A DNA stretch of 64,000 nt. Source: an uncultured virus (IMG/VR IMGVR_UViG_3300031759_000004) (Duplodnaviria > Heunggongvirae > Uroviricota > Caudoviricetes). Under the pieces are notes generated by a model that was not told the origin of the DNA, did no database searches, and saw only the letters and a list, made by a program, of their open reading frames with translations. The stretch covers positions 62,001 through 126,000 of the IMG/VR virus record IMGVR_UViG_3300031759_000004; one strand, 5' to 3'. This document shows, in pieces, positions 9,069 through 56,014 of this stretch; within the stretch, counting starts at the first letter, position 1, and each line of letters opens with the position of its first letter. The position numbers were made by a program, and so were the translations under genes.

Positions 9069-9228
9069 CTTCGGTTAAAGCGCGCTGGACCAATTCCAGC
9101 AGGGCGCGGTTAAGCGCCAAAGTTTCGTTCAGCAAGCCCGCCGCCGCGATCAGCGGGTCCGCTTTGGCGGAAAGGGCCACGCAGCGCATTTTCAGGGCGG
9201 CGGCGTCGCGCAGCAGTACTTGATTCAT
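8911..9228 (-). CDS. Small hypothetical protein (3' part overlaps next gene)
   Basis: ATG at 9228 with minus-strand GTTCT at 9237..9241; helical N-half. Confidence 0.4.
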   Translation of the reverse strand: MNQVLLRDAAALKMRCVALSAKADPLIAAAGLLNETLALNRALLELVQRALTEDETAKNTQPAGGPVPAETQSPAGTDSRPPGGSGHPGPPAVPGAGLERAARGV

Positions 9229-9247
9229 GTTCTTTGAGAACAGAATT

Positions 9248-10774: not shown

Positions 10775-10792
10775 CCCTGTTCTCTTTCTGGA

Positions 10793-12031
10793 ATGAAGCT
10801 ACCGATCAACACCCAGTGGGTCATCGCCACCGTCAAAGAACCGGTCATTTTCCAGCAAACGCTCGACGAAGCGTGGCTGCTGAATCCCAACCGGCGCTAC
10901 ATCCTGAACGCCAACCGGCTGGAAACCATCGAGCCGTTCCTGGACACCGTGTCTGAGTTTGAGTGTTCGTCCTTGTACCACCGGCTGCACGGCAAAGCCG
11001 ATCTCTGCGGCGGCAAGCTGCTGGTGGAGCGCTGCCGGGAGCGCGGCCTGGGCGACCTGCTCTTTCTGACCGGCGTCCTGGGCTACCTCCAGCACATCTC
11101 CAGCAACAACGTGCAGATTGACCTGATGGGCTTCGCCGACCGTGGCGTCGTGCTGACGCACAGCCCGCTGATCAGCAACGGCTGCGTCAAGTGCGGGCCG
11201 GTGGAGTACGACGCCCTGCGCCACTACAATTACCACTGGTTTGTCAATTCCGTGACCGAGCAGGACACGGAGCAGGATCAGCTGAATGTCTACGACGCCC
11301 TGTACCAGCAGCTGGGCTTCGACTACACCCAGATCGAGCCGCGCTGGAAGCGTCCCACCGCTGTGTTGAAACAAGAGGACTACCTGAGCCTGGACGCGTT
11401 TTTCCGCCGGGTGATGGACGGGGTGAAAGTGGACCTGCGCCACATCGGCTACATCGTGGTCGCGCCGTTTTCCAATTCCAATCTGCGCTGCTTGAGCTAC
11501 ACCCAGTGGCTGAACGTCATCAGCCTGCTGGCCACGCGCCGCCCGGTGGTGGTGGTCGGCACCGCCACCATGCGCCTGCCGGACACGGACATCAGCGCCG
11601 GGGAATTTATCCAGCGCCTGGGCCAGTTCGGCCAGGCCGTGGTCAACGCCGTGGACAGCACCAACACCCGCGCCCTGATGGCGCTGATTTCCCGGGCGTC
11701 CGCCGTGGTCTGCCTGGATTCCGCGCCGCTGTACATCGCCCAGGCGCTGAACACCCCGGCGGTCTCCCTGTGGGGCACCCACCATCCCGCAGCGCGGATC
11801 GGTTACGACCAGCGGTACATGGAGTGGGCCATCTGGCACGGCGACGCCTGCCGCTGCGCGCCCTGCTTCGCCTACAGCTATTTTCCGTACGACAAGTGCC
11901 CGAAAGGCCGTCAGCAGCAGGTGTGCGAAGTCATGCTGGACATCGACGCCCAGGAGGTTCTGAACAAAGTAGACGAAATCCTAGCCACGCCGACGAGCTT
12001 AACCAGCCTGACGGTGCCCCACCATGCCTAA
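10793..12031 (+). CDS. GT9 (ADP-heptose:LPS heptosyltransferase-like) glycosyltransferase
   Basis: 'GLGDLL', 'VVCLDSAPLYIAQALNTPAVSLWGT', 'CRCAPC...C...CEVMLDI'. Confidence 0.85.
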   Translation: MKLPINTQWVIATVKEPVIFQQTLDEAWLLNPNRRYILNANRLETIEPFLDTVSEFECSSLYHRLHGKADLCGGKLLVERCRERGLGDLLFLTGVLGYLQHISSNNVQIDLMGFADRGVVLTHSPLISNGCVKCGPVEYDALRHYNYHWFVNSVTEQDTEQDQLNVYDALYQQLGFDYTQIEPRWKRPTAVLKQEDYLSLDAFFRRVMDGVKVDLRHIGYIVVAPFSNSNLRCLSYTQWLNVISLLATRRPVVVVGTATMRLPDTDISAGEFIQRLGQFGQAVVNAVDSTNTRALMALISRASAVVCLDSAPLYIAQALNTPAVSLWGTHHPAARIGYDQRYMEWAIWHGDACRCAPCFAYSYFPYDKCPKGRQQQVCEVMLDIDAQEVLNKVDEILATPTSLTSLTVPHHA

Positions 12032-16168: not shown

Positions 16169-16993
16169 ATGCCCACTGATCTGACTGCGGGATGGTACCG
16201 TCGGGTAAACGACGTACTACGGGAAGAACCCCAACTGAGCACAAGCTTGTGCAAAGAAACCGAAACCGTGCAAGACGGCAGCCCGAACGGCACCGACTAC
16301 TCCAAAACGGTTTGTGACCTCACCCGGGCGATCTATCGCTCCGGCAAAGACGTGCCCAAGCTGACCAAGCAGCAAATCATTGGCAGCGCCACCAGTGTGT
16401 TGATACTGGATACGCCGCTGCCGGTCGTCAGGGAACTGATGCAAAAGCCAGTTCCCGTGCGCAGCGCTGAACCCAAGAAAACAGCGCCCGCCAAACCCAA
16501 GCCGCCGGAAAAACCCGTCAGCCCTCGCCCAAAAGTAGAACCTTCTGAACCCAAGCCCGCCGCCAAAGTTGAACCCAAGCCGGTCGTCAAGGCGGAGGTC
16601 AAACCCGAACTCAAGCCGCTCAACCGCCCGGCGGAACCGGCTCCAGCCAAGCCCGCCCCGGCTAAACCGGTCCCGGCTAAGCCCGCACCGGCGGCAGCCG
16701 CCGTAGTCCGCGAAAGCGAGGACACGGACGTGGAGGCCAAACCTGCGCCCAAGACGGCGCTGTCCAAGCCCATCAAGTCAGGCACCAAGCCCAGCACTGA
16801 CGAAATCACCTACATCCGGGACAAGATACCTTACATTCCCGGGCTGACCATCATCAACAATCTGCACGCCATCATGCTCTTGATGGAACCGTACGTCCGG
16901 CGCGGGGACAAAGTGGCCGCCGATCTAAACGACGAATTTGCCACCTTGATCGACAAAGTTTACGTCCTCGTTACCCTACCTTCCGGTGGCTAA
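16169..16993 (+). CDS. Hypothetical protein with Pro/Lys/Ala-rich linker
   Basis: ATG 16169; PAKP repeats; overlaps next gene. Confidence 0.7.
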   Translation: MPTDLTAGWYRRVNDVLREEPQLSTSLCKETETVQDGSPNGTDYSKTVCDLTRAIYRSGKDVPKLTKQQIIGSATSVLILDTPLPVVRELMQKPVPVRSAEPKKTAPAKPKPPEKPVSPRPKVEPSEPKPAAKVEPKPVVKAEVKPELKPLNRPAEPAPAKPAPAKPVPAKPAPAAAAVVRESEDTDVEAKPAPKTALSKPIKSGTKPSTDEITYIRDKIPYIPGLTIINNLHAIMLLMEPYVRRGDKVAADLNDEFATLIDKVYVLVTLPSGG

Positions 16994-17990
16994 GAAAGCA
17001 TCCAATCCCGTCGACGGCGAGCACATCTTTCCGGCGAGCAAATTAACGCCTTTGGCGGTCCAGTGGAAGCAGTTGAATGCCACGGGCCGTCACAAAGAGG
17101 CCATGCTCGTCCTGGAAGAGATCGTCATCGGTTCCACGGCCATGTTTCAACGCCTGGCCCAATTTGAAGACTTCCACTACACGGTGGACCTCCCGATCCT
17201 GGTCAGCGCGGCCCAGGAGAAGGTGATCAAGTGGCTGGCCAAATGGCAGCCCAAGAAAGGCAAGCTTTTCTCCTGGTTCAGCAAGTGCGCCAAGAACGCG
17301 TTCAAATCCGAGCTGGTCAAGGTCAACCAGTACCGCAAGCGCTATCATGTCACCAGCGAGCACCTGGAGAAGTTTTACGGCGTCGAAGACCACGAAGTCA
17401 ACAAGCACGACCTGTCCCTGGAAGTGCGCAAGCGGATCACCGACATCATCTGTCGCTGGTCCGACCCGCAGATCATCGGCGCGCTGCGCTTCTCCCTGGA
17501 GTGCATCGTCGAGGACGAGCACGACCGCCAGGCGGTGGTGCGCTCGGCGGCTTACGCCTACTGTCTCAGCCTGGAATTCAGCAAGTACCTGTACGAGTGG
17601 TGTACGGTGGCCTTGCGCACGGCGTTTTACGACAAAGCCTATATTCCGTACACGGAGTACGAGCTGCTGATGGCGGCGGAGAGCTTCACCTTTCTTCCCG
17701 ACCTGTTCAACATCATCGGCATCGAAAAGGGCAAGGAAGTGCTGGCCATTTTTGGCGGCCACCGGATCAAATTTCCAACCTTGCAGGCCGTGGCCCTGCT
17801 GGTTGAGAAACAAAAAATAGCCCGCGACATCGAGCGCAGCGATCAGGACCCCGATGCCGTCGTGGAGGTGGCGCGCAAATATAAACGGACCCAGCGCGCC
17901 GCCGAACAGATATTCAACGAAATGTTAGAAATAAGAGACCCCCGACGTTATGGCGAATATGGCGTTTTCGACGAAGATTCCGGACAGTGA
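16986..17990 (+). CDS. Sigma-factor-like protein (gp55-like region 2) with C-terminal Mor-like HTH
   Basis: 'KWQPKKGKLFSWFSKCAKNAF' resembles sigma region 2.3-2.4; 'IFGGHRIKFPT' and 'EVARKYKRTQRAAEQI' resemble Mor-family activators. Confidence 0.65.
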   Translation: MAKKASNPVDGEHIFPASKLTPLAVQWKQLNATGRHKEAMLVLEEIVIGSTAMFQRLAQFEDFHYTVDLPILVSAAQEKVIKWLAKWQPKKGKLFSWFSKCAKNAFKSELVKVNQYRKRYHVTSEHLEKFYGVEDHEVNKHDLSLEVRKRITDIICRWSDPQIIGALRFSLECIVEDEHDRQAVVRSAAYAYCLSLEFSKYLYEWCTVALRTAFYDKAYIPYTEYELLMAAESFTFLPDLFNIIGIEKGKEVLAIFGGHRIKFPTLQAVALLVEKQKIARDIERSDQDPDAVVEVARKYKRTQRAAEQIFNEMLEIRDPRRYGEYGVFDEDSGQ

Positions 17991-29831: not shown

Positions 29832-29895
29832 ATGCTGACGTTTAGTCATTTTTCAGCTGGCCACGGCTCGTCTGTGTGTGTTCTATACTGGCGAC

Positions 29896-30759
29896 ATGAA
29901 ATGCCTATTACGGTACCCTGGCGGAAAAAGTCGAATGCTCGGCGATCTACAGCCGTACCTGGTCGGAATGCTTAAAAATGAAACTGAGTACGGCGAACCT
30001 TTCGTCGGTGGTGGTTCGGTGGCGTTGCACGTGGCGCGCCATTTTCCAAAAATCAAGTTAAGGCTGAACGACAAAGACCCGCTCATAGCCGGGTTATGGC
30101 GCGTAATCTGCGGACCCTCTGCCGGTGTCAATCAGCTAATTAAACTGATTGATGTGGTGCCAACATTAAGCCTGTGGCGGTCCACCCGCAGCAGTGAACC
30201 CAAAACAGACTTGAATCGGGCTTTTAAGGCGATATTCATGAACCGAACCTCGTGGAACGGCATCGTACACGACTCACGTCCGATAGGCGGCCTGGAGCAG
30301 AAAAGTAAGTGGCCAATCGGTTGTCGCTATAACGTAGGCGCTTTAAGCGCCCTTTTAGTAGCCTACCATGAACTTCTGTCCGGACGCACTGTTGTGACGG
30401 AACTGGACGCTGTTGAATTTGTACGTCGATTCAGTTGTCCCTGCTTTATTGATCCGCCGTACCTTATGGACGGCAAAAATAAACTTTACGGCGTTAGCAT
30501 GACTGAAAGCGAGCACAGGAATTTTGCAAAAGCCTTGCGCACGCTGAGAAAGTGGGTACTGACCTACGATAATAAAGATAGGGTTGCCTGCGACTTGTAC
30601 TGGCGCGTAGACAAAAAGCTCATAGATACGAGATACTCGATGGACACAGCCCATCGCGCCCACCGCGAAGTAGTGGGAGTGGCTGAGTGGAAAAAAGCGA
30701 GCGAAATTTGCGCACACAAAGGTTTTTCTCTTGTTCTTAACGGCAGCGCTGAACTATAG
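29896..30759 (+). CDS. dam: DNA adenine methyltransferase (Dam/D12 class)
   Basis: 'LRYPGGKS', 'EPFVGGGSV', 'LNDKD', 'NRTSWNG', catalytic 'FIDPPY', 'WVLTYD'; target site unknown. Confidence 0.9.
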   Translation: MKCLLRYPGGKSRMLGDLQPYLVGMLKNETEYGEPFVGGGSVALHVARHFPKIKLRLNDKDPLIAGLWRVICGPSAGVNQLIKLIDVVPTLSLWRSTRSSEPKTDLNRAFKAIFMNRTSWNGIVHDSRPIGGLEQKSKWPIGCRYNVGALSALLVAYHELLSGRTVVTELDAVEFVRRFSCPCFIDPPYLMDGKNKLYGVSMTESEHRNFAKALRTLRKWVLTYDNKDRVACDLYWRVDKKLIDTRYSMDTAHRAHREVVGVAEWKKASEICAHKGFSLVLNGSAEL

Positions 30760-30813
30760 TCGGCGTGTAACCGGACTTGCTGGAATTAACCGGTGGGACT
30801 GGGAAAGGAAAAC

Positions 30814-32847
30814 ATGAAATATATGCAAATGGTGGGCGTCTACGCTCACATTAACCGAGCCTACGAATCTTCAGAGGCTTATCAATGGTCAAGAGAAGCC
30901 GCCGTAAACGCCCTCCAAGCTGGTGCGACTGATGTGCGGTTCGACGTGGAGTGGCAAGCAGTACGCAGCCAACAAGTGTACCGACGGCTTGTGGCCGACA
31001 ACGGATCAGGCATGAGTGCGCAGCAAATGCCAGCTTTTTTGAATAAATTTGGCGGTTCAGGCCGCACTATCGGAGCCATTACAGGAAACTACGGTGTAGG
31101 CTTTAAGAGCAGCGTACTGCCGTGGAACGGTTACGGTGTTGTGGTCATTTCCGTGGTTACGCTGAACGGGCGGATAGAAACCAATATGATGTGGCTTCAG
31201 AGGGAAGAGAAAGACGACGGTACCTTGGACTACGGCGCGCGGGAGCTGTTGTCTGATTATTTCGATGGGCGAGAAACTCAAGAAAGCGACGATTTTATCG
31301 GCGACTGGGTCTCCGGTTTTGGAAGAAACGAGGATGCTACAACAGTGATGCCATTGACACTGTTAAACGATTGCGGATACGTGCCTGAATTAGACGGTAT
31401 TAACTGGCTTAAAGTAGTCCCTAAGTTTGTGAAAGAGGCTGGGCACGGCACGGTTATCGTGCTACTCGGGCAGCGTGGAAAAGAACACACCATACTTGGT
31501 GACTTTAAGAGGAACGAACACGACACCAAGTACGGTCTTTGCCGCTACCTGAACACCCGTTTTTATTCTATTCCCGACAACTTCAAAATTACGGTTGCTT
31601 CCGTGGGAACAGAAGAGGCAAGAAAAAACTGGAATCAACCGAGCAGCTGGCCAACGGCACCTGGCACTGGAGGCATAAGCAGCAGGACAGTCATCGGCAT
31701 GAAAAAGTGTCTGGAGTCTTACGTTGTCGCCGCTACTAAAGAGGGCAAGGAGGCTAAGCGCGGTCAGACGCTGCTTAAAGCTGGCGCAGAAGTTCCTGTT
31801 AGTGTAGACACCTTGCTGCTGCCTGAGCTGGAAAAAAGCAGCGGCACCGTTGGTGGTGACAATCACTATGCCGCCGGTAATTATCCTTCACTTCCGCTCA
31901 TCGCTAGCATCTGGAAATGCCATCCCGACTTAGACTTAGTCGAAACTTTTAACGTGCGCATGCTGTCAGAGGGAAAAACTGCGCTTTTTGACTGGATAAA
32001 CTTAATGGATGTACGGCGACGTTTGGCTTTAATCCTAGAGCCGAAGGACGACGGTGACATCTGTGTTTTTGCGGATCAGTCCAGGCGCACTCTACTATAC
32101 CAAAGTAAGACTAAAGGTGGCGCGCCGCTGCCGGAGCTTGAGTGGGCGGCAGCCTACAGGGTAAACCGGCCTGACTTCATATCAAAAGCGGTGGACGCCT
32201 ACTTTGAAGGTTTAAGCGTAGATCGACCTGAAACGGATGCGAGCATCGTGGAGCACCTTAAGCAGTATTTTCCGTTCATGGCGCATACTGTCGTAGAAAC
32301 TCGACGCGCGGAAAAGAAACAGCCTGCTTACGAAAGATCGGATGAATCGGACGGCGACACCGACAGTGGTAATCGCGGCGGTTACCGCTTGCCGGGACAT
32401 TTGGGCGGTCGCGGCAGGGATTTTCAAAATAGTCGAGGCTTGATAACCGTTAATAAGGGTACAGTAGAAGGAGGATTTCCGGTAGAATGGAATACAGATC
32501 AAAAAGAGCCTAGAGGCATTGTAGACATGACACATCCTCTAGTCAAAGATGCGTGGGACATGTGCGAACTCAAGCTAAGAGCCGACGGTGTGGATGACGG
32601 CGCTGAAATGACTAGCTACCGACGAGCTTTTGAGAGCCAGGTAATCGGGCACGTGAGCTTGGCTATGACGCACATTTACGCCTACCTTAAGGCCAACAAA
32701 ATGAAAAACTCGGATGAATTGACAAAGCCCAGCGCGCTACTGTCTATCGTAGCTGGCATAAGGCATTTGCACCAAGCCTCGCAAGGGCCGTTCGGCACGA
32801 TTAAAGGTGGAAGAGCGAAAGTCAAAACCGCTTGCCCGGTCAACTAG
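30814..32847 (+). CDS. GHKL (Hsp90/MORC-like) ATPase
   Basis: Bergerat motifs 'REAAVNALQA', 'VADNGSGMS', 'GNYGVGFK', 'GHGTVIVL'; lower GC. Confidence 0.8.
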   Translation: MKYMQMVGVYAHINRAYESSEAYQWSREAAVNALQAGATDVRFDVEWQAVRSQQVYRRLVADNGSGMSAQQMPAFLNKFGGSGRTIGAITGNYGVGFKSSVLPWNGYGVVVISVVTLNGRIETNMMWLQREEKDDGTLDYGARELLSDYFDGRETQESDDFIGDWVSGFGRNEDATTVMPLTLLNDCGYVPELDGINWLKVVPKFVKEAGHGTVIVLLGQRGKEHTILGDFKRNEHDTKYGLCRYLNTRFYSIPDNFKITVASVGTEEARKNWNQPSSWPTAPGTGGISSRTVIGMKKCLESYVVAATKEGKEAKRGQTLLKAGAEVPVSVDTLLLPELEKSSGTVGGDNHYAAGNYPSLPLIASIWKCHPDLDLVETFNVRMLSEGKTALFDWINLMDVRRRLALILEPKDDGDICVFADQSRRTLLYQSKTKGGAPLPELEWAAAYRVNRPDFISKAVDAYFEGLSVDRPETDASIVEHLKQYFPFMAHTVVETRRAEKKQPAYERSDESDGDTDSGNRGGYRLPGHLGGRGRDFQNSRGLITVNKGTVEGGFPVEWNTDQKEPRGIVDMTHPLVKDAWDMCELKLRADGVDDGAEMTSYRRAFESQVIGHVSLAMTHIYAYLKANKMKNSDELTKPSALLSIVAGIRHLHQASQGPFGTIKGGRAKVKTACPVN

Positions 32848-32854
32848 CAGAGCT

Positions 32855-33784
32855 ATGAAGCTATTGATTTGCGGCGGTCTCTACGGCTCCGAGGGCAAGG
32901 GCTGCGTGGCCGATTACTTCGCCCGGCAGACCCAAGCCCTGGTCGCCTTCGCCGAGTCCGGCCCCAACTCCGGCCACACCAACTCAGCCTGGTGTACCCA
33001 CTGCCTGCCCTCCTGCGCCATGCGGGCCAACGCCACGCTGATCGGGCCGGACGCGGTGATCGACCTGGACCAGCTGGCCCGCGAGCTGGCGCAGCTGCCA
33101 AAGAATGCTCGCGTCTACGTCCACGAGAACGCGGCCATCACCCTGCCTGACGACCGCGTCGCGGAGCAAGAGCTGGGCTTGGGGCGGAGCATCTCCAGCA
33201 CCTGTACCGGCAGCGGGTACGCCCGGTACAAAAAGTATACGCTAAGGCAGCCCAATGCCGTGGCGGGCTACTACCCAATCCCAGGCGTAACCGTCGTGAA
33301 GTCGGCGGAGTGGCTGGACCTGGTGGAGGAGCTGTCCAGTTTCGACTGGATCGTCGAGGGCAGCCAGGGAGCGCTGCTGGACACCAACTTTGGCGTGTAC
33401 CCGTACGTGACCAGCCGGTCAACGCTGCCGCTGTCCATTATCGGGCGCAACGGCTTGTCCTGCTTCAACTGGACCATCTGCTCGGTGTACCGGACGCTGC
33501 CAATCCGCACGGGCGGCCCCAGCGGCCCCTGTGGCGGCAAGGAGCTGACCTGGGTTGAGCTGAAGCTGGAGCCGGAGATCGCCTCCACGACCAAGCGCGT
33601 GCGCCGGGTATTTGAGTGGTCGGAGAGCGACTTCAAGCTCAGCCTGCGGCTGACGCGTCCGGATGTCGTGGCCATCACGCACCTGGACTACGCGACTGAC
33701 GCGTTCGTGGCCGACAACATCAGGTCCCATTTCCACGGCACCGTGATCGGCAGCCGCCAGCCTGCAAAGTTCACGTACCTTTGA
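32855..33784 (+). CDS. purZ: Adenylosuccinate-synthetase homolog, PurZ/PurZ0-like
   Basis: 'GGLYGSEGKG' (Ser replaces PurA catalytic Asp), 'GPNSGHT', 'VEGSQG..LD...G.YPYVTSR', 'RTLPIRTGGPSGP', 'STTKRVRRV', 'ITHLDY'. Confidence 0.75.
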   Translation: MKLLICGGLYGSEGKGCVADYFARQTQALVAFAESGPNSGHTNSAWCTHCLPSCAMRANATLIGPDAVIDLDQLARELAQLPKNARVYVHENAAITLPDDRVAEQELGLGRSISSTCTGSGYARYKKYTLRQPNAVAGYYPIPGVTVVKSAEWLDLVEELSSFDWIVEGSQGALLDTNFGVYPYVTSRSTLPLSIIGRNGLSCFNWTICSVYRTLPIRTGGPSGPCGGKELTWVELKLEPEIASTTKRVRRVFEWSESDFKLSLRLTRPDVVAITHLDYATDAFVADNIRSHFHGTVIGSRQPAKFTYL

Positions 33785-34013
33785 CCGGCTGCTTGGCCAG
33801 GAATTCCTTCGCCGATTCGGTAAACGATTTGCCGCACCAGGGGCAGTAGTGCATCGGCCACATGGTGATGTGCGTGCCGTTGGCGGCGGCCAGTTCGCAC
33901 GCCAGGTTGAGGGTGTGGACGCCCTCCACCATTTTGTCGCAGCACTCCGCGTCTTTGGTCGTGACGTCGGGCGCGCCCGGGATGTCAATGGAAACGAGTC
34001 GATTCGTGATCAT
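33771..34013 (-). CDS. Small Zn-finger protein
   Basis: 'CC...YCPWCGK'; GTTCT at 34021..34025 (minus). Confidence 0.6.
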   Translation of the reverse strand: MITNRLVSIDIPGAPDVTTKDAECCDKMVEGVHTLNLACELAAANGTHITMWPMHYCPWCGKSFTESAKEFLAKQPVKGT

Positions 34014-34048
34014 GCCCGCTAGAACTGAATTTGTCCGTAGTTAGGGGC

Positions 34049-34555
34049 GTGAGACAGAGACGACTTGCCGTGGTTAAAGCGCGTATCGCGCAGTTGGACG
34101 CTGAGTATGACCGCCTGGACGGCCTGGCGCAGCCCACTGCGCACGTATCCGCCGAGCTGAAGGCGCTCAACAACGAGCTGGACCTCCTGCTGCACCGGCC
34201 ATTTACGAACGCCAAGCTGGAAGAAGCGCTCAAACGCGGCAAGCCGGTGGCCCTGGTTGATGCGCTCCTGGAGGCCGGGCCGTTGCGCACGCTCCGCGAT
34301 CTGCAAGCCATGCCCGACGACCAGCTCTACCGCTGCCACGATGCCAGCGTGGCGGAACGGCACAAGATTCAGGTGCCGTTCCAGTGCGGCTGCCGCCAGT
34401 GGATGGGAGCAGGGGTCGTGCGCGTTGAGTTTTACTCCAACCGGGAAAATGTGTTCGGCAGCCAAAGGTACCAGGACAGCGACCACGCCAGCATCAGGAC
34501 CCTGGAGCCGGTGCCGGGCGAGACGTGGCAGTTCGACATCCTGCCCAGTTTTTGA
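34049..34555 (+). CDS. Hypothetical protein with internal 'LVDALLEA' motif
   Basis: GTG 34049 after GTAGTTA at 34037. Confidence 0.65.
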   Translation: MRQRRLAVVKARIAQLDAEYDRLDGLAQPTAHVSAELKALNNELDLLLHRPFTNAKLEEALKRGKPVALVDALLEAGPLRTLRDLQAMPDDQLYRCHDASVAERHKIQVPFQCGCRQWMGAGVVRVEFYSNRENVFGSQRYQDSDHASIRTLEPVPGETWQFDILPSF

Positions 34556-34571
34556 CGGGTTAAAGCTTAAA

Positions 34572-34600
34572 TTGACATCGACCTGTCGATTGTATACATT
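34572..34600 (+). promoter_or_regulatory. Host sigma70-type promoter
   Basis: TTGACA-17 nt-TACATT, 6 nt before ATG 34607. Confidence 0.75.
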
Positions 34601-34606
34601 TTTAGT

Positions 34607-35206
34607 ATGCGTGCCGATCAGCTAGTGACGAAGCTCCTGGACCTGCCCACCCTGGGCCAGCTCCGGGAGTCGCCCCAGTATTACCCAGGTCCCTTCGCCT
34701 ACCAGCGAGATTCCGGCTTCCGGCCCCTGTCGATGGACAACTACTGGGCCTGCCAGCTGATGACCCAGGATGCCGACTACGCCTACGCCCTTTCCCCGGC
34801 GGGCAACTTCGGCTACGTGTTTTCCGTGCCTGACACCGAGAACCCGCCAAGGACCGGCATCGTTCCGGTCATGACGGTTCAGCTGCGCCCGTCCAACATC
34901 AAGGGCTACATGCAGGCGCACCGGCTGAGCATCCGGGAGAGCTTCGCCCGGGGCGGCGTGGCGACGCGCTGGTATTTCAGCTACGTCCAGTATGCGGGCG
35001 GGGTGGTCTCCGATTTTGAGCACCTGGAAGGCGGCAAGCGCCTCTGGAAGTCGTTCGTGCGCACGGCGACGGATCACGGGCTGAAGATTTCCCTGGTGGA
35101 CAGCCGCACCGGCGAATGGCTTCCGGTAAGCCCGCAGTCGCCGGACGAGGCCATCTGGTCCCTGGACAAGACACTGTACCCGGTCGTGCTGGTGCTGGAG
35201 CGCTAG
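34607..35206 (+). CDS. GNAT-like (acetyltransferase-fold) protein
   Basis: 'LSIRESFARGGVATRWY...VVSD..HLEGGKRLW' resembles GNAT motifs A/B. Confidence 0.55.
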   Translation: MRADQLVTKLLDLPTLGQLRESPQYYPGPFAYQRDSGFRPLSMDNYWACQLMTQDADYAYALSPAGNFGYVFSVPDTENPPRTGIVPVMTVQLRPSNIKGYMQAHRLSIRESFARGGVATRWYFSYVQYAGGVVSDFEHLEGGKRLWKSFVRTATDHGLKISLVDSRTGEWLPVSPQSPDEAIWSLDKTLYPVVLVLER

Positions 35207-35212
35207 TTAGGC

Positions 35213-35470
35213 ATGGCCGAATTCACACCCTGGGCGCTGGCGCAGCCGCGAAACCCGCCGCCCATCAGCAAGGTCACGGTATACGCCCGCGACCCTTACA
35301 ACTTCAGCTGGCGCACGCCGGACGGCACCATCATTCCCGCCGTAGGGCCAAACGCTGCCGGGGCGACGAATCCCACGTCGGTGCCGACGATTCAGTCGGT
35401 GGAGATCATTCCGGCCCCTGGGGTGCCTGACTACGGGGTCAACGGGCCAGGCCAGGAGCAGGCGATGTAG
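35213..35470 (+). CDS. Small Pro-rich hypothetical protein
   Basis: CTAGTTA motif at 35203. Confidence 0.6.
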   Translation: MAEFTPWALAQPRNPPPISKVTVYARDPYNFSWRTPDGTIIPAVGPNAAGATNPTSVPTIQSVEIIPAPGVPDYGVNGPGQEQAM

Positions 35471-35480
35471 TTAATACGCT

Positions 35481-35705
35481 ATGGCCAATAAAAATTTTGA
35501 TCCAAACGCTCGCTACGACAACGGACCCAGCGCCGCTGGCTCGGGCCGCATCTCGACTCCCGCGCCCACGACCAACAGCGGTCTGGCCACGGACAACACC
35601 GTGACCAACTCGAACATCGAGTGCGGTTTCAACTGCGCGGGCAACCAGAAAAAGAACAACGGCCCCAATGTGGCCGGTAATCCGCGCAGCTACAACAACA
35701 CCTAG
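35481..35705 (+). CDS. Small Asn-rich hypothetical protein
   Basis: GTAGTTA at 35467. Confidence 0.6.
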   Translation: MANKNFDPNARYDNGPSAAGSGRISTPAPTTNSGLATDNTVTNSNIECGFNCAGNQKKNNGPNVAGNPRSYNNT

Positions 35706-35930
35706 TCAGCTGTTGGTGATGCCGTGCTCGGCCTGGATGTGTTCCTTCAGGCGGGCCGACTTGCGTTGGAGCGAGTCTAGGACATCGCGCCAGTCTTCGT
35801 CCGGCGTCACCTGGGCCGTCAGGTCGAACTTGACGGATTCGTAGTTGCCGATGTTCACGGACATGCCGTAGCTGACCTGGATGATCTTGGTCGGCTTGCG
35901 GGGCGGTTCGGGTGCTTTAGCTTCAGCCAT
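35706..35930 (-). CDS. Small conserved-type phage protein ('SVNIGNYES')
   Basis: 'VSYGMSVNIGNYESVKFD' is a recurrent phage motif. Confidence 0.65.
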   Translation of the reverse strand: MAEAKAPEPPRKPTKIIQVSYGMSVNIGNYESVKFDLTAQVTPDEDWRDVLDSLQRKSARLKEHIQAEHGITNS

Positions 35931-35943
35931 ATAAGTGTAGACG

Positions 35944-35972
35944 AAAAAGGGCTGGCCTCGCAGGCCAGCCCT
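35944..35972 (-). terminator. Rho-independent terminator after DUF932 gene
   Basis: AGGGCTGGCCT-GCG-AGGCCAGCCCT then T-run on the minus strand. Confidence 0.8.
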
Positions 35973-35979
35973 GTTTGTT

Positions 35980-36783
35980 TTAGTTCGTGGCCACGACCGC
36001 TGCGTCGACTTCCACCGTGCCCGCCGTAACCTTCTCCGCTGCGGTCGTGGTGGCGAAGCCCACCTGGGCGTCCATTAAACCGCTTAGACGGATGGACCGT
36101 TGCGGCAGAAGGGTCAGGCTGGTCTCTTTGTAAACTTCCGTGAACGCGTTGTGCAGACGCCAGGCGGACTTGTCCTTGGCAAATTCCGGGTGCCGGGGCG
36201 TGCGCCATTCCTTGAGGATGGACGGAATCTGCTGGAGCGTGCAGGCGTTAATGTCCGTGGCGCGGATGATGAAGTCGTGGGCGGTGGAGTCGGTCAGCAT
36301 CGTCTGCTTGTACTGGGCGATGCGGTCGTTCATGACGGACCACTTCTGGGCGAGCAGCCCGACGGCGTTGCCGGTGAGCTTCGGGAGGTCCTGCTCGATG
36401 AACCGGGTGTGCTTGCGGGCGATGGTAATCTCGCCGCTGAAGCTGAGGTTGTCGCACACGAACACGCTGGCCCCGACGGCGAGGGAGGCGGTGAAGGCTT
36501 TGTCGTGGGCGTTGCGCAGGCCCAGGACGTAGGCGTAGTCGTCCGCCGTCTTCTGGCAGTTGGCCACGCGCAGGAGGCCGAAGTAGCGGTCGCCGTTCTT
36601 GGTGAGCGCGTGCGCCTGCTCCATGACGCGCATGTTCAGGCTGCCCAGCGCCTGCTCGACCCGGGAGATCAGGGTCTCGTGGGCGATGGGATACCAGGTA
36701 TCGGTGGGCGAGGGGGTTTTGACTTCCATGACCTGTTCGCGCGTCACGTTGTGGGCACCGCAATGTAGCATCAGACCGTTCAT
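35980..36783 (-). CDS. DUF932-family protein
   Basis: 'TWYPIAH', 'LGLRNAHD', 'VFVCDNL.F', 'RKHT', 'SAWRLHNAFTE'. Confidence 0.8.
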   Translation of the reverse strand: MNGLMLHCGAHNVTREQVMEVKTPSPTDTWYPIAHETLISRVEQALGSLNMRVMEQAHALTKNGDRYFGLLRVANCQKTADDYAYVLGLRNAHDKAFTASLAVGASVFVCDNLSFSGEITIARKHTRFIEQDLPKLTGNAVGLLAQKWSVMNDRIAQYKQTMLTDSTAHDFIIRATDINACTLQQIPSILKEWRTPRHPEFAKDKSAWRLHNAFTEVYKETSLTLLPQRSIRLSGLMDAQVGFATTTAAEKVTAGTVEVDAAVVATN

Positions 36784-40836: not shown

Positions 40837-42783
40837 TCAGCGCCAGCGGATGGTGCTGGCCACCTGGTCGCGCTTGTGCTTCTCCACGATCAGCACGTGG
40901 TCGGCGTAGTTGGCGGCCACCGGGTTGTGGTCCACCAGGAACACCAGGATGCCCAGGCGCTGGGCCACGTCTTTCATGTAGCTGTAGATGCTCTGGCATA
41001 CCTTCGGGTCCTGATGGGGCAGGATTTCGTCATACCACCGGAATCCCAGCCGCCGCGAAACCTGGCCGACTTCGGACAGCGTTTCGGCGATGATGAAGTT
41101 GGTCAGGCCGCCCTCGCCTTTGGAACTGCCTGCCAGTTCCTTGTCGCCCAGTTTGTTGTCTACTTCCACGTGGAGCTGCGCCTTCTCCTGGCCGCTGGCC
41201 AGCTCCCGGACCGTGCTGAAGCGGATGTCGATGGTGCCGCCGGTCATGGCCGCTGACACGCGCCGGGCCTCGTGGTTGAGCGGTCCGATGGCTTCCCGCA
41301 GCACCAGGTTGGGAATGCCGTAGGAGGAGAAAGCGGTGTACCAGTATTTGATCACCTTCGCGGTGAAGTCATTCTGGGTCACGCTCACCGCCGCCGCGTC
41401 CAGCTTGTCCTGGCACTTTTGCAGGTACGCCTTGGAGGCTTTCAAGGTGGTGGCCGCTCTGACCACGTTGCTGTCCGAGGGCGGCGCTTTCAAGCCCGCC
41501 AGTTCCACGTCCAGGTCTTGGACGCGGTCTTCGTTGGCGTTTTGCTTTTCGACGAGGTCCTCGTAGTCGTCCGACAGCTGCTTGACCTCGTCGCTGGCCG
41601 ACGCTTCGCTGAACTCCTTGCGCAGGTCGCGCAGCGACTGCTGCTTGGCCTTGATCTTCTCGTTAAGCTGGCTGAGCTGTTCGTTGATCTCGTTGAAGGC
41701 GTTACAACCCTTCTGGTAGGCAGCTTCCAGCTCCTGCTGGCGCTCCGGGTCCAGTTTTCCACGGGGCCGGTTGCAGGTCGGACAGTTGGCCGCCGAGGAC
41801 AGGTAATTCTGCCTGGCGGTGCGCGTGGTGGACATGGTCTCCTGGCGCGTGTCACGTGTTTTAAGGAGTTTTTCCTTTTCGTCGTCCAGGGCGGTCAGGA
41901 CGTCTTCTACCTTGTGGATGTTGATTTCAATGTCGTGGGACTTTTTGGCGCGCTCGTCCTCCATGAGTTTCAGCTGGGTCTTGATCTCCTGCATTTTGGC
42001 GCTGATCTCCTTCAGGCGATTCTCCAGATTGACTTTGCGCTGGCGTACTTCGTTGATTTTGGCCTCGTGGTTGTCCAGGTTGCGCTGGTGCTCTTCTTTG
42101 GCGGCCAGATACGCGTCCTTGGCCGCGTCCAGGTCGCGCTGGGCGTCGGTTAGGTTTTCGATGGCGGTGGCGTGGGCCTGGCTGTCCTTGGCGGCGGTAA
42201 CCTGGAACTCGCCCGACTTTTTCTTCAGGATTTCAAAGTAGCTGGACCATTCTGGCTGGCGGAGCGCCGCCATGACGAGGCTGACGCTGTCCGCCTGGGA
42301 CAGCCGATTGAACTTGAGCCGCTCGCCGTCGATGAAGGCCGTCCAGTCCGCCAGCTGCGGAGACACGCCCAACAGCTTGGCCAGCTGGGCGCGTGTCTCC
42401 TGCATGCGCCCGCGCTCGACCCGGGTGCCGCCGTGGGTGTAGCTCAGGGCCTCGCCGGAGCTTTGAAATTCGTCGCAGGCGTACCCGGCTTCCACCAGCA
42501 GCGGCTTGCCCAGCAGTTCGGCCTCCAGACGGACGTACAGGTCGCCCTGCTTGTCCAGGCTATACTGCTTGGCGCTGGTGAACCGGCCTGTGATGCCCAG
42601 CAGGGTGCGGCACAAAGCTTCGCCCACGGCGGTCTTACCCGATCCCACCGAGGCCAGGGCACCGCCGGAGGCGGTGTTGAGGCCCTGGACCAGGATCAGG
42701 CCCTGGTCGGGGAACTCCAAATCCACATCACGGAACTTCATCCAGTTGCGCATTTTCAGGCGCTTGAGTTTTAAGTCAGCCAT
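40837..42783 (-). CDS. gp46: Recombination endonuclease ATPase subunit (gp46/SbcC/Rad50)
   Basis: Walker A 'GSGKT', coiled coil with 'CPTC' zinc hook, signature 'SSKGE', Walker B 'WYDE', 'LVDH'. Confidence 0.9.
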   Translation of the reverse strand: MADLKLKRLKMRNWMKFRDVDLEFPDQGLILVQGLNTASGGALASVGSGKTAVGEALCRTLLGITGRFTSAKQYSLDKQGDLYVRLEAELLGKPLLVEAGYACDEFQSSGEALSYTHGGTRVERGRMQETRAQLAKLLGVSPQLADWTAFIDGERLKFNRLSQADSVSLVMAALRQPEWSSYFEILKKKSGEFQVTAAKDSQAHATAIENLTDAQRDLDAAKDAYLAAKEEHQRNLDNHEAKINEVRQRKVNLENRLKEISAKMQEIKTQLKLMEDERAKKSHDIEINIHKVEDVLTALDDEKEKLLKTRDTRQETMSTTRTARQNYLSSAANCPTCNRPRGKLDPERQQELEAAYQKGCNAFNEINEQLSQLNEKIKAKQQSLRDLRKEFSEASASDEVKQLSDDYEDLVEKQNANEDRVQDLDVELAGLKAPPSDSNVVRAATTLKASKAYLQKCQDKLDAAAVSVTQNDFTAKVIKYWYTAFSSYGIPNLVLREAIGPLNHEARRVSAAMTGGTIDIRFSTVRELASGQEKAQLHVEVDNKLGDKELAGSSKGEGGLTNFIIAETLSEVGQVSRRLGFRWYDEILPHQDPKVCQSIYSYMKDVAQRLGILVFLVDHNPVAANYADHVLIVEKHKRDQVASTIRWR

Positions 42784-53144: not shown

Positions 53145-53686
53145 TGTTACCGCGTCCAGTTGGGTTTGTGTCCATCTCCAAGATAACCTTGGCGGACGGC
53201 CAGGAGCTGTCCACGCAGCAGGCCGTCGACTACGGCTGGATCAAGGCACCCGCCGGGCGGCAGCCCGCTGGCTGGGGCCTGGAGCGCCACGAGGTGCCTG
53301 TGGGCAAGAATCTATTCCTCGACCAAGGCCGCCAGGCCATGGCTTTTGCTTTCGGGGGCCGCAGCCCGACGGTCAACTACGCCATCAGTTTGTTTGCCAT
53401 CGGCACCGGCACGACGGCGGCCCAGGTGACGGACGTGGCGCTGGCCGCGCCCATCCTGTTCCCCAGCTCGCTGTACCACAAGGCCGTGGACTCGATTGAC
53501 TACATGTCGCCTTTCGTGGTGCGCGTAGCTTTCACCATCGGCACCACCGAGGCCAACGGCACGCTGATTAGCGAGATGGGCTTGCTGACGGGCGGCCAGG
53601 CGCTGGTGACCCGCAAGGTCCGCGCCACCAGCATCAACAAGACTTCAGATTACGCGCCCACGCTGACCTGGAGAATTCGATTTTAG
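53141..53686 (+). CDS. Baseplate/tail-fibre attachment-like protein
   Basis: 'FAIGTG', 'EANGTLISEMGL', 'INKT...LTWRIRF'. Confidence 0.6.
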   Translation: MMLPRPVGFVSISKITLADGQELSTQQAVDYGWIKAPAGRQPAGWGLERHEVPVGKNLFLDQGRQAMAFAFGGRSPTVNYAISLFAIGTGTTAAQVTDVALAAPILFPSSLYHKAVDSIDYMSPFVVRVAFTIGTTEANGTLISEMGLLTGGQALVTRKVRATSINKTSDYAPTLTWRIRF

Positions 53687-53688
53687 CT

Positions 53689-54015
53689 ATGAACAAACTT
53701 ATCCAGAAAATTATCGGCGAGGCCGACATCGAGGCCACCACGCAACACAGCGCAGTACCCGGAGAACTGGATGGCGCTATGACCCAAATTCGTGAGCGCT
53801 TTGTTGAGGAACGAGTTCATGGCTTCAAGGACCCGACAACAGGCCAAGCTGTTGGTCCCGTGAGCCGTGAACAGGCGGAAGCGGCCTGGCAACGCATTGA
53901 GCCTCAGCTCAGGCGGTTATTTAGGCAGGCGGAACCCGGCAGTGAAACGAGCCGGATGTTGGGCTTGCACCAGAGCCGGGACGTGTACAACTACCGGAAT
54001 CCCAACGCACAGTAG
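53689..54015 (+). CDS. Hypothetical protein, 'LIQKIIGEA' motif
   Basis: 2-nt gap from upstream gene. Confidence 0.65.
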   Translation: MNKLIQKIIGEADIEATTQHSAVPGELDGAMTQIRERFVEERVHGFKDPTTGQAVGPVSREQAEAAWQRIEPQLRRLFRQAEPGSETSRMLGLHQSRDVYNYRNPNAQ

Positions 54016-54022
54016 TTAGCGT

Positions 54023-54376
54023 ATGATTGCAACCGTCACAGACAGCCAATTCGTCGGCGAGACTTTGTCTACGCTGTTCAGCGTCATCCAGCAGGGTCCG
54101 GCCAGCTTGATGGTGACGATGAAGAATAGCGGCGTCAACACGCTGAATTATGATTTTCAGGAATTCAACGGCACCTCCTGGGCGGACCTGGGCGCGCCGG
54201 GCAGCCTGCTCAACAACACGCTGATGGCCAACCAGGTGATCCAGCTGATCGTGACCTCCACGTATCCGCAGGTTCAGCTGGTAGGCAACGCCTCCGGCGG
54301 CGCGCTGTTGGAGTTCACGGTGGTCCGGTACTACAACCGGGCCAGCGGCGGAGCGCTGCCGCTCATCGCCGTCTAG
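54023..54376 (+). CDS. Hypothetical beta-rich (virion?) protein
   Basis: GTAGTTA at 54012. Confidence 0.65.
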   Translation: MIATVTDSQFVGETLSTLFSVIQQGPASLMVTMKNSGVNTLNYDFQEFNGTSWADLGAPGSLLNNTLMANQVIQLIVTSTYPQVQLVGNASGGALLEFTVVRYYNRASGGALPLIAV

Positions 54377-55196
54377 TCTGGTACTCCTCGTAGACGCGGC
54401 TGTACAACAGGCCGATGTTGGGGATACCGAGCGATTTGGCTTCCGCCACGGAAGCCAGCTGCAAACGTCCCGGATCAGGTACGTCCGGGACGTTGGTTTT
54501 TAAGCGGGTCAGCTCCAGGCACGCCAGGAACTGCTCCTGGCACTCCGGCGGCATTTGGCTCAGCAGCGCCGCCTTGGCCTCCTCGAACGTCATGTCTGGA
54601 TTTACCTTACGGAACAGCTCGCGGCACTTTTTAGGACCCCAGCCATGAACGCCCTTGATGTTGTCCACCGGGTCGCCGGTGATGGCCTGAACCAGCGCCA
54701 CCTGGCTGGCCCGGGGCACGCCCCATTTTCGCCGGATGTAGTCGGGCGAGAGGATGGTCTTGGTGTTCAGGCAATAGTAATGGATGTTCCCTCGCTGAAG
54801 CTGTTGCAGGTCCTTGTCACCCGAGACCACGTAAACTTCGTCCGTTTTGGCGGCGCGTACTGCGGCGGTTGCCACGACACTGTCTGCCTCGTACTGGTCG
54901 TGTTCAAAGTTGACAGTGCCAAAGAGGAACGCCAGAACATCTTTAACGGCTTCCTTGGTGTCATGATATACCTTTGGTTTGGTTTCTCGGCCCTTGTTGC
55001 TGGAAATGTTTTTGGGGTCCCAGCCGAACAGGGTCCGGTCTACGTACACCCCAAGTTTGTCGATGTCGGGATTCAGCAGGATCAGCAGTGAGCGCACCAT
55101 CAGACTGACCGCGTCCAGCGGTTCCCCGCCGCTGCGCTCGGCGGCGTACCAGGACCGGGCAAAAATACTATTTGCGTCAAAGCAGGCTGTTATCAT
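54363..55196 (-). CDS. rnh: 5'-3' exonuclease / T4 RNase H-like flap nuclease
   Basis: 'FDANS', 'YEADS', 'VSGDKDLQQL', 'ITGDPVDNIKGVHGWGPK'. Confidence 0.9.
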   Translation of the reverse strand: MITACFDANSIFARSWYAAERSGGEPLDAVSLMVRSLLILLNPDIDKLGVYVDRTLFGWDPKNISSNKGRETKPKVYHDTKEAVKDVLAFLFGTVNFEHDQYEADSVVATAAVRAAKTDEVYVVSGDKDLQQLQRGNIHYYCLNTKTILSPDYIRRKWGVPRASQVALVQAITGDPVDNIKGVHGWGPKKCRELFRKVNPDMTFEEAKAALLSQMPPECQEQFLACLELTRLKTNVPDVPDPGRLQLASVAEAKSLGIPNIGLLYSRVYEEYQTRRR

Positions 55197-55210
55197 GTGT
55201 AGGTACTGGT

Positions 55211-56014
55211 ATGAAAAAGCTAACGGTGCTTAAAAATAAATTTCCACCAGGCACTAGAACAGGAAAGCTAGTCGTCAAAGGCTACGAAAAATACGGCAAA
55301 CCTCCGTATTTTTGGATGCTCGTTTGTCGCTGTGACTGCGGCAATATAATTAGGGAAAGGCCGCACAGACTCATGGCTCGAACAGTTAAAAGCTGCGGCT
55401 GTAGTTTTGCTGGGTGCGCAACTGACAGGTTCAAGTCTACGTATCCAACAGGCTTAAAGTTCGGACAGCTTACGGTGATTGGCTATGATATTAAACCTTT
55501 TGAAACTGCGCAGCGCAATGGAAGTACAGTTGAACGACGCGTCATCTGTGTCTGCGCGTGCGGCAAGAAAAAGTCAATAGCGGTAAAATCGTTAAAATGC
55601 GGAGGAACCATCAGCTGCGGCTGTGTGGGGATCAAGAACAGGGTAGCGGCGGCAAAACGAGCATGGTCGTTACCTCCTGGTACCGCCTCGTTTAACGCAG
55701 TCTACGGTCAAGTCAAAAGACAGGCGGTGAACCGGGGTATAGCGTGGGTTTTGACCCCGGATGAATTTAAGCGCGTCGTAGCTGAAAAATGTTTTTACTG
55801 CGGAGCGCCGCCGTCAAAGTCGTACCGTACTCGTACATCAATCGTAGATTTTGTATACAACGGTATTGATCGTCTGGATTCTGGCTCTGGCTACACTGTC
55901 AGCAACTGCGTGCCCGCGTGCAAAGTGTGCAATTATGCCAAAAACACAATGAGTGTAGACGAATTCAAAACATGGATTCGCAACATATCAGCTCATTTTC
56001 TCGGGCTGCGCTGA
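55211..56014 (+). CDS. Free-standing HNH homing endonuclease
   Basis: Two 'G.L.V...C.C.CG...SCGC' units; 'CFYCG...GIDRLDS..GY...NCVPACKVCNYAK'; lower GC. Confidence 0.85.
   Translation: MKKLTVLKNKFPPGTRTGKLVVKGYEKYGKPPYFWMLVCRCDCGNIIRERPHRLMARTVKSCGCSFAGCATDRFKSTYPTGLKFGQLTVIGYDIKPFETAQRNGSTVERRVICVCACGKKKSIAVKSLKCGGTISCGCVGIKNRVAAAKRAWSLPPGTASFNAVYGQVKRQAVNRGIAWVLTPDEFKRVVAEKCFYCGAPPSKSYRTRTSIVDFVYNGIDRLDSGSGYTVSNCVPACKVCNYAKNTMSVDEFKTWIRNISAHFLGLR

Follow-up and report, generated by a model that had tools for sequence, protein, structure and literature searches.

The window analysed here is a 64,000-nucleotide stretch of DNA from an uncultured virus of the Caudoviricetes, covering bases 62001-126000 of the 129,045-bp linear IMG/VR contig IMGVR_UViG_3300031759_000004 (G000), which CheckV estimates to be about 57% complete. 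At positions 32855..33784 on its + strand lies a purZ-like gene, identified as a member of the adenylosuccinate-synthetase superfamily by its open reading frame (ORF), by Pfam, NCBIfam and PHROG profiles and by a fold model, and assigned to a lineage that we call clade J, of which 120 members were seen. A preliminary description of this DNA had proposed a PurZ- or PurZ0-like enzyme at this position, and with it possible 2-aminoadenine (Z) chemistry, in a T4-like myophage. The reading frame is intact and encodes 309 residues followed by a stop codon. Its ribosome-binding site is weak, and its GC content at third codon positions (GC3), 0.86, is the genome's usual value. A longer, GTG-started frame opens at 32807; the homologues instead begin at the ATG at 32855, with the pattern MK..(C/V)..GG.

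The protein carries the YGSEGKG P-loop, the segment R213-TLPIRTGGPSGP-225 with its PIRTGGPSGP motif, and I274-THLDY-279, a set that, judged on its motifs, is far beyond chance. In the P-loop (Y10-G-S12-E-G-K-G16; 32882..32902, +), Ser12 occupies the column of Asp13 in adenylosuccinate synthetase (PurA) and of Ser14 in phiVC8 PurZ. The stretch P216-I-R-T219-G220 (33500..33514, +) has a Thr where PurA carries Val273 and S-2L PurZ carries Val241. It is followed by the aspartate-loop tip and arginine cluster A243-S-T-T-K-R248-V-R-R251 (33581..33607, +), in which Ala243 aligns with T262 of phiVC8 PurZ and Arg248 with Arg303 of PurA. Finally, T275-H-L-D278 (33677..33688, +) is a guanine-type (N/T)KxD motif, at the place where ATP-type PurZ has N-F-x-(N/Q).

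Pfam model PF00709 (Adenylsucc_synt) matches the protein with an E value of 5.4e-26 (91.7 bits; cut-off 27) and PHROG 1211 with an E value of 1.5e-44. Among six NCBIfam models the PurZ model NF038379 scored highest, at 154.6 bits, which is under its curated cut-off of 300; the archaeal-type PurA model NF003295 came second (110.8 bits; cut-off 368), and the PurA model TIGR00184 reached 80.1 bits (cut-off 395.55). The best solved relatives found by sequence are phiVC8 PurZ and S-2L PurZ (86 bits), Pyrococcus horikoshii PurA (55.7 bits) and PurZ0 (54.9 bits). An AlphaFold2 model made with 42 clade sequences has a mean predicted local distance difference test (pLDDT) score of 92.6. It superimposes on phiVC8 PurZ (6FM1) and S-2L PurZ (7ODX) with a template-modelling (TM) score of 0.87, on PurZ0 (7VF6) with 0.85 and on P. 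horikoshii PurA (5K7X) with 0.84. Because the profile matches, the motifs, the modelled fold and the homologue-supported ATG agree, the adenylosuccinate-synthetase fold with Ser at the Asp13 column that had been noticed in the sequence is confirmed; profiles, alignment and AlphaFold2 model all speak for it.

Relatives of the protein in cultured phages are 24.9-33.0% identical to it (100 of 199 matches listed), and metagenomic relatives are nearer, at 39-51% (the 119 best of 695). When 1.84 billion representatives were searched, about 20 sequences scored no less than 166 bits, and the next at most 138 bits. In a 113-row tree the protein falls within a 24-row clade with a support of 100 in the Shimodaira-Hasegawa-like approximate likelihood ratio test (SH-aLRT) and a stem of 1.02 changes per site, apart from the PurZ clade (phiVC8, S-2L, Acinetobacter phage 53, Burkholderia Bm1) and from PurZ0 (Wayne, Archimedes). 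A 52-row tree likewise recovered clade J (SH-aLRT 100, stem 1.63), grouped it with PurZ at 92 and placed PurZ0 elsewhere at 99. The protein thus lies inside neither the PurZ nor the PurZ0 clade in either tree, and the earlier suggestion that it fits the PurZ0 clade gives way to a separate, long-branched clade standing beside ATP-type PurZ, a grouping with an SH-aLRT of 91-92 in both trees. Both trees were quick ones with SH-aLRT support only, rooted on E. coli PurA alone and with archaeal PurA left out; for these reasons the evidence that clade J is sister to ATP-type PurZ is moderate and not firm. The encoded protein is probably an active, intact ligase of this third lineage of the PurZ branch. 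It is the shortest member of its clade, the others having 311-386 residues. We also observed a small short-form clade with GDEGKG (Asp13), consisting of P0195, P0203, P0250 and P0252 and nested among the Ser13 groups, whose members carry Q-T-D-S and E-R-x-F-E-W instead of the aspartate-loop and arginine motifs.

Active-site columns were compared over 24 clade-J, 24 PurZ, 5 PurZ0, 10 Patescibacteria (CPR) and 4 D-type rows; residue numbers from the literature equal the E. coli numbering of this alignment minus one. Clade J keeps the catalytic set, i.e. the P-loop Lys, His41, Gln224, the phosphate-binding Ser-Thr pair and the Arg cluster, and every catalytic and ligand-binding column that was checked is retained in the purZ-like protein of the window. 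Ser stands at the PurA Asp13 column in 119 of the 120 clade-J members. At the PurA D333 column all 24 clade-J rows have Asp, and the PurZ rows have Asn (17), Asp (5) or Gln (2); the guanine-type T-x-x-D motif that had been recognised in the preliminary description therefore holds as T275-H-L-D278 for the protein and as an Asp throughout its clade. The PurA S414 column is likewise uniform, with Ser in 24/24 clade-J rows (Ser300 in our protein) and Gly in 21/24 PurZ rows. The adenine-type nucleoside triphosphate (NTP) pocket (F295/N297/Y298 in phiVC8; N305/F306/Q308 in S-2L) is missing, and by these residues the clade-J NTP pocket is of the guanine (GTP) type.

Two positions in the pocket set the protein apart from all PurZ, PurZ0 and CPR rows. 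The first is the phiVC8 T262 column, the role of which is taken from bioRxiv 10.1101/2025.10.22.683976: Ala is found here in 17 of 24 clade-J rows, including the present protein, and Thr in all PurZ (24/24), PurZ0 (5/5) and CPR (10/10) rows. The T-T-V-T tip of the PurZ aspartate loop is accordingly replaced by A243-S-T-T. The second is the PurA Val273 column, with Thr in 22/24 clade-J rows, Val in all PurZ (24/24), CPR (10/10) and D-type (4/4) rows, and Val (3) or Ile (2) in PurZ0. As far as residues can be compared, the clade-J pocket is PurZ-like yet not identical to that of PurZ, and sequence alone therefore cannot tell the substrate.

The Ser at the Asp13 column had been taken as a hallmark of PurZ, for which it proved insufficient. 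A genome scan for relatives of the protein gave 12 loci, ten of them from Patescibacteria metagenome-assembled genomes, all with GSEGKG (L032, L034-L037 and L039-L043; flanks annotated for L032, L035, L040 and L041). Among the four annotated flanks, one holds MurB, Mur ligases and RuvA, another FtsZ, FtsA and YbeY, and a third LexA and WhiB. The GSEGKG enzyme was the only PF00709 homologue in all seven Patescibacteria genomes searched; a PurB-like gene was found in two of these seven incomplete genomes, once on the same contig as the Ser13 gene. The short-form Ser13 enzyme is thus probably an ordinary cellular enzyme in Patescibacteria. Because in these bacteria it is the sole PurA homologue and is encoded in the midst of housekeeping genes, Ser13 is not diagnostic of the use of deoxyguanosine monophosphate (dGMP). 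For annotators this means that neither the Asp13 to Ser swap nor the PHROG label '2-aminooxy adenylosuccinate synthetase' identifies PurZ by itself.

Annotation of G000 gave 153 ORFs and 7 extra frames. Its virion genes include a gp23-type major capsid protein (PF07068; 26018..27487, +, found with Pfam), an S77 prohead protease, a sheath and baseplate proteins, and its replication and repair genes a RecA/UvsX-like protein, a DnaB-like helicase, an NAD ligase, an SbcC-like protein and a family-A polymerase (PolA) of 1150 aa. The latter is the only polymerase found in G000, where no T4-type family-B replicase was seen. Its gene (L003:12996-16448, i.e. G000 32996-36448, outside the window) is kept in both relatives described below, and Pfam covers only residues 764-1096 of the product. 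A further 12,963 bp of this phage, taken from another contig, encode a T4-type portal, gp25, Cpn10, a metallophosphoesterase and a glycosyltransferase. A megablast search with 9.7 kb around the purZ-like gene gave no match among cultured phages, and among the matches listed for the capsid protein, identity is below 30%. The portrayal of the phage as T4-like holds for its morphogenetic module (gp23 capsid, gp21-type protease, gp20 portal, sheath and baseplate) but not beyond it, because the replicase is of family A and no cultured phage is close. Two further features of the genome were observed. Glycosyltransferases (GT2, GT9 and GT34-like) and FkbM or class I methyltransferases are unusually many among the structural genes (window 9227-12031 and 59996-63500; L006:88-2814). 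A Ro60/TROVE protein with a vWA domain is encoded at L004:15141-16838 (G000 53541-55238, outside the window) and is 55% identical to a protein of the first of the two relatives.

These relatives, also from IMG/VR, are G001 (238,436 bp, 96% complete) and G002 (230,253 bp with direct terminal repeats, 100% complete). In tblastn searches 69 of the 153 G000 proteins have a match in G001 and 48 in G002; identity to G000 is 80% and 66%, respectively, for the capsid protein, 48% and 44% for PolA, and 45% to both for the purZ-like protein. The genome that carries the purZ-like gene is that of a jumbo myophage of about 230 kb, whose capsid is of the gp23 type and whose DNA polymerase belongs to family A. 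A scan of viral contigs for close relatives, made with the purZ-like protein alone, added just two contigs, both from this phage. All three jumbo phages have the gene. Its position is not syntenic, i.e. the G001 and G002 copies lie elsewhere in the genome among unrelated neighbours, and vertical inheritance, examined by forcing the three copies into a single clade, came out as borderline in an approximately unbiased (AU) test (delta lnL 93.6, p 0.056).

Pfam annotation of the 245 ORFs of G002 revealed ThyA, two divergent thymidylate synthase (TS)-like genes, a carbamoyltransferase, four amidoligase_2 genes and two GATase genes, as well as a class II ribonucleotide reductase (RNR) about 6 kb from the purZ-like gene, a dTMP kinase and a D12 methyltransferase. 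Neither PurB nor a hydrolase acting on nucleotide pools was found among these ORFs. By their predicted families, ThyA and the TS-like, carbamoyltransferase, amidoligase and GATase genes, located at L047:5851-8510, L054:7967-10784 and L046:6189-7217 and 16372-17550, look like a pyrimidine hypermodification pathway.

Clade J was also found in a second type of phage. A metagenome scan gave 79 loci, of which eight clade-J loci were annotated, on contigs of about 8-29 kb (20-29 kb for six of the eight): L070:2956-11079, L075:589-7193, L093:1263-7454, L081:727-6812, L072:1643-6942, L084:6640-13240, L073:2482-8840 and L078:1706-6260. In seven of them the clade-J gene lies 0.6-3 kb from a contig end. 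The purZ-like gene is followed by a small ORF, a gene of the dUTPase family (7/8 loci, one or two genes 3' of the purZ-like gene), an ORF of 175-200 aa and often a GT2 gene; then come a protein-primed family-B polymerase (PolB; 8/8), an ORF of about 150 aa and DUF4406 (6/8). With a profile of the Dut-like protein, solved dUTPases were matched at about 1e-15; its match to the Dut portion of the Wayne fusion of nucleoside 2-deoxyribosyltransferase (NDT) and Dut has an hhalign probability of 98.3%. The sole match of DUF4406 in the Protein Data Bank is an NDT (E 0.16), a family to which we presume DUF4406 to be kin. PurZ0 phages carry the helper set DutZ/DmtZ, according to PMC12884076. The Dut and DUF4406 module of the small phages resembles this set and, by analogy, is the best indirect argument that supports Z-type chemistry in clade J. 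The eight loci are candidate members of a group of small Z-type phages that has so far gone unrecognised.

Compared with phiVC8 PurZ (DgsS; 6FM1/6FKO/6TNH) and S-2L PurZ (7ODX), the protein shares the short-form fold, the catalytic His/Gln/Arg set, the Ser at Asp13 and an aromatic residue two positions before it, and in both trees no labelled clade is nearer to it than theirs. However, it is only 30-33% identical to them, has T-H-L-D instead of N-F-x-N/Q, and carries Ala for T262 and Thr for V236/V241. The phiVC8- and S-2L-type phages are podo- or siphophages of about 40 kb, whereas the gene studied here sits in a jumbo phage without DatZ or MazZ neighbours, DpoZ or PrimPol. With PurZ0 it has in common Ser13 and the Asp at the guanine-specificity column; it differs in identity (about 30%), in its clade (separate at 99) and in its P-loop, which is GSEGKG instead of GSEAKG. 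The Dut-family and NDT-like (DUF4406) genes of the small clade-J phages parallel the DutZ and DmtZ of PurZ0 phages, while the jumbo family has neither Dut nor NDT genes in the three genomes searched. P. horikoshii (5K7X/2D7U) and E. coli PurA are alike in the fold, in the GTP-type pocket (Asp333, Ser414) and in the Arg303 column, but the protein has Ser for their Asp13 and scores far under the curated PurA cut-offs. The CPR Ser13 enzymes are short forms with the same GSEGKG P-loop and the Asp at the guanine column; at 30-34% identity they nevertheless form a separate clade (99), keep the Thr and Val that are changed in clade J, and are encoded on chromosomes among housekeeping genes rather than by a phage.

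In work attributed to Tong et al. (2023), PurZ0 is said to use GTP. The Asp pattern of our alignment agrees with PurZ0 being of the GTP type. Section 24 of PMC12884076 gives the preferences of PurZ0 and PurZ as 'ATP and GTP, respectively'; its own introduction has PurZ using ATP, and as the wording of section 24 runs contrary both to that introduction and to the Asp/Asn pattern of the alignment, it is probably a slip. Literature searches, covering main texts with few subscription journals among them, turned up no account of PurZ in either jumbo or protein-primed PolB phages.

The purZ-like gene of the window stands directly behind a low-GC island of two genes on the same strand (29878-32847; GC 0.507 for 30001-32000), which has no counterpart in G001 or G002. 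The first gene of the island (29878..30759, +) encodes a D12/Dam-like N6-adenine DNA methyltransferase (PF02086, PHROG 56, PADLOC PD-Lambda-5_B at 153.6 bits) and coincides with the GC dip. The second (30793..32847, +) encodes a protein of 684 aa with an N-terminal GHKL/HATPase_c_3 domain found by Pfam, for which neither PADLOC nor PHROG gave a match; the stop codon of this GHKL-type ATPase lies 7 nt before the purZ-like ATG. Downstream are three ORFs of 174, 199 and 85 aa (34031..35470, +), none of them like a nucleotide hydrolase, and Pfam, PHROG, PADLOC and Atlas look-ups revealed no nucleotide-pool enzyme among the neighbouring ORFs. For the ORF of 199 aa (34607-35206), the nearest Atlas clusters and models are GNAT-like acetyltransferases (TM 0.61-0.68), which we regard as a lead only. 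The whole region, between the capsid gene and the SbcC-like gene (40837-42783), is a variable stretch, the interval measuring about 13 kb in G000 and 0.8 kb in G002.

The most likely reading of these data, to which we assign a probability of roughly 0.4, is that the protein would be a GTP-driven dGMP-aspartate ligase that leads to some 2-amino-dATP (dZTP) and a partial replacement of A by Z. The enzyme would use GTP to phosphorylate O6 of dGMP and add aspartate, yielding N6-succino-2-amino-dAMP, which PurB and kinases of the host would turn into dZTP. Because this family of phages lacks enzymes that clear dATP or dGTP as well as a polymerase of the DpoZ type, the family-A polymerase would then take dZTP beside dATP, and the outcome would be virion DNA in which adenine is partially, not completely, replaced by 2-aminoadenine. 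According to PMC8342488, Klenow does not discriminate A from Z, and incomplete Z clusters in E. coli give Z incorporation that is lower but real. The retention of the gene across three related jumbo phages supports this reading.

A number of observations weigh against this reading or speak for a replacement that is partial at most. The first group concerns helper genes, for which six-frame profile searches (E of at most 0.1) were run on G000, G001 and G002. HD (PF01966), MazG (PF03819), YfbR-like (PF12917), DatZ and MazZ profiles found nothing in the three genomes, and neither did dUTPase (PF00692), NDT (PF05014) or DUF4406 (PF14359), the last of these searched without a positive control. DUF550 (PF04447) gave only a 12-bit fragment in G001 that is broken by a stop codon, in a search that had no positive control and matched neither phiVC8 nor Wayne. 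The DatZ and MazZ profiles were built for this analysis with Acinetobacter phage 53 left out, and recovered the genes of that phage at 1.4e-20 and 2.8e-21, respectively; the dUTPase control was recovered in Wayne and Archimedes, and the NDT control was weak (Archimedes, 4.1e-4). No helper gene was found in the extra 12,963 bp of the window's phage, and a tblastn search with 48 proteins from the clade-J modules of the small phages gave no relevant match in the three jumbo genomes. The polymerase scores 38 bits against the DpoZ of phiVC8 and 55 bits against that of Wayne, compared to about 215 bits against SPO1-like PolA, and by these scores is not DpoZ-like. The absence of DatZ, MazZ and DpoZ that had been remarked on for the window thus extends to all three genomes. 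D12 adenine methyltransferases occur in G000 and G002, a hint that adenine is present in the phage DNA. As no known helper gene was found in the phage or in its two near-complete relatives, at most a partial replacement of adenine is likely, and the initial caution that full Z substitution is not established is upheld.

The second group lies in the protein itself. The Arg303 column, described from the outset as seemingly retained, is Arg in 24/24 clade-J rows (Arg248 here), and PMC8342488 states that Arg303 of PurA contacts the ribose 2'-OH and ties Val241 and the Arg303 equivalent to discrimination against that group. The Thr at the Val273 column adjoins C2', where other groups have Val (Ile in two of the five PurZ0 rows). 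Ser13 is shared with the presumably housekeeping enzymes of Patescibacteria, and the one clade-J member that departs from it is the G001 copy, with Leu (GLEGKG; L016:9986-11014). Lastly, of 66 columns with a conservation of 95% or more among the 117 other members, the protein deviates at 7, the highest count of all.

Several of these points would also fit an auxiliary PurA, i.e. a short-form adenylosuccinate synthetase that acts on inosine monophosphate (IMP), Asp and GTP, boosts the adenine-nucleotide supply and merely tolerates Ser13. This is the main rival explanation, and we consider it possible though doubtful. It draws on the Patescibacteria, where the Ser13 short form stands alone in 7/7 genomes, lies among housekeeping genes in the four annotated loci and in one genome shares its contig with a PurB-like gene. 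The PurA-like GTP pocket and Arg303 column of the protein, the lack of Z helper genes and the presence of adenine methyltransferases point the same way. However, Asp is conserved at the Asp13 column in 99% of the PurA group according to PMC12884076, the top profile and the top structures are PurZ and not PurA, and the clade relatives sit in Dut and DUF4406 modules typical of Z-type systems.

The clade-specific residues, i.e. Thr for Val273, Ala for phiVC8 T262 and the invariant Arg at the Arg303 column, together with the very long stem of the clade, could also reflect another 6-oxopurine substrate: ribo-GMP, giving 2-amino-AMP that would be reducible via the phage class II RNR route, or dIMP or XMP (the monophosphates of deoxyinosine and xanthosine), for a purine modification other than classical dZ synthesis. 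DNA-modification genes are plentiful in the family (TS-like genes, a carbamoyltransferase and amidoligases in G002), and the class II RNR of G002 lies close to the gene. We regard such a substrate as unlikely, since Thr and Val are isosteric, since Arg at the Arg303 column is also found in 12 of 24 PurZ rows, and since the Dut and DUF4406 context of the small phages points to the handling of deoxynucleotide pools.

A drifting or decaying passenger gene with little or no catalytic role would account for the seven deviations, the shortest length in the clade and the Leu of G001, as well as for the weak ribosome-binding site, the non-syntenic positions in three phages and a place in a variable region beside a recently acquired low-GC island; yet the frame is open, all checked catalytic and ligand columns are kept, GC3 matches the genome, the model is confidently folded and the gene persists in three diverged genomes, which makes this explanation quite improbable. 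A fully Z-substituted genome, with adenine excluded by helpers of unfamiliar families or by genes in the unsampled part, could appeal to the roughly 37% of the estimated genome outside G000 and the extra 12,963 bp and to the many ORFs without a family, but is very unlikely in view of relatives at 96% and 100% completeness without any known helper family, a PolA far from DpoZ and the D12 methyltransferases of G000 and G002.

Known Z-genome systems combine PurZ or PurZ0 with pool-clearing helpers, in phages of at most 83 kb among the records listed. The third lineage occurs in two settings, namely small protein-primed PolB phages with a helper-like module and a family of jumbo myophages without helpers. 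Beyond partial Z synthesis from dGMP in the phage of the window, we put forward, as a speculative proposal that is rather doubtful, that gp23-capsid jumbo phages of about 230 kb use a stand-alone, GTP-dependent enzyme of this lineage to bring 2-aminoadenine or a related 2-amino purine into their DNA without a dATP-clearing helper or a Z-selective polymerase. This may accompany pyrimidine hypermodification, mixed A/Z DNA serving as a new and graded purine modification, and the same lineage would mark unrecognised small protein-primed PolB phages with PurZ, Dut and DUF4406. If the enzyme is indeed active on dGMP, it would follow that phages can use Z to modify their DNA in part, and the search for Z-DNA could be extended to more kinds of phage.

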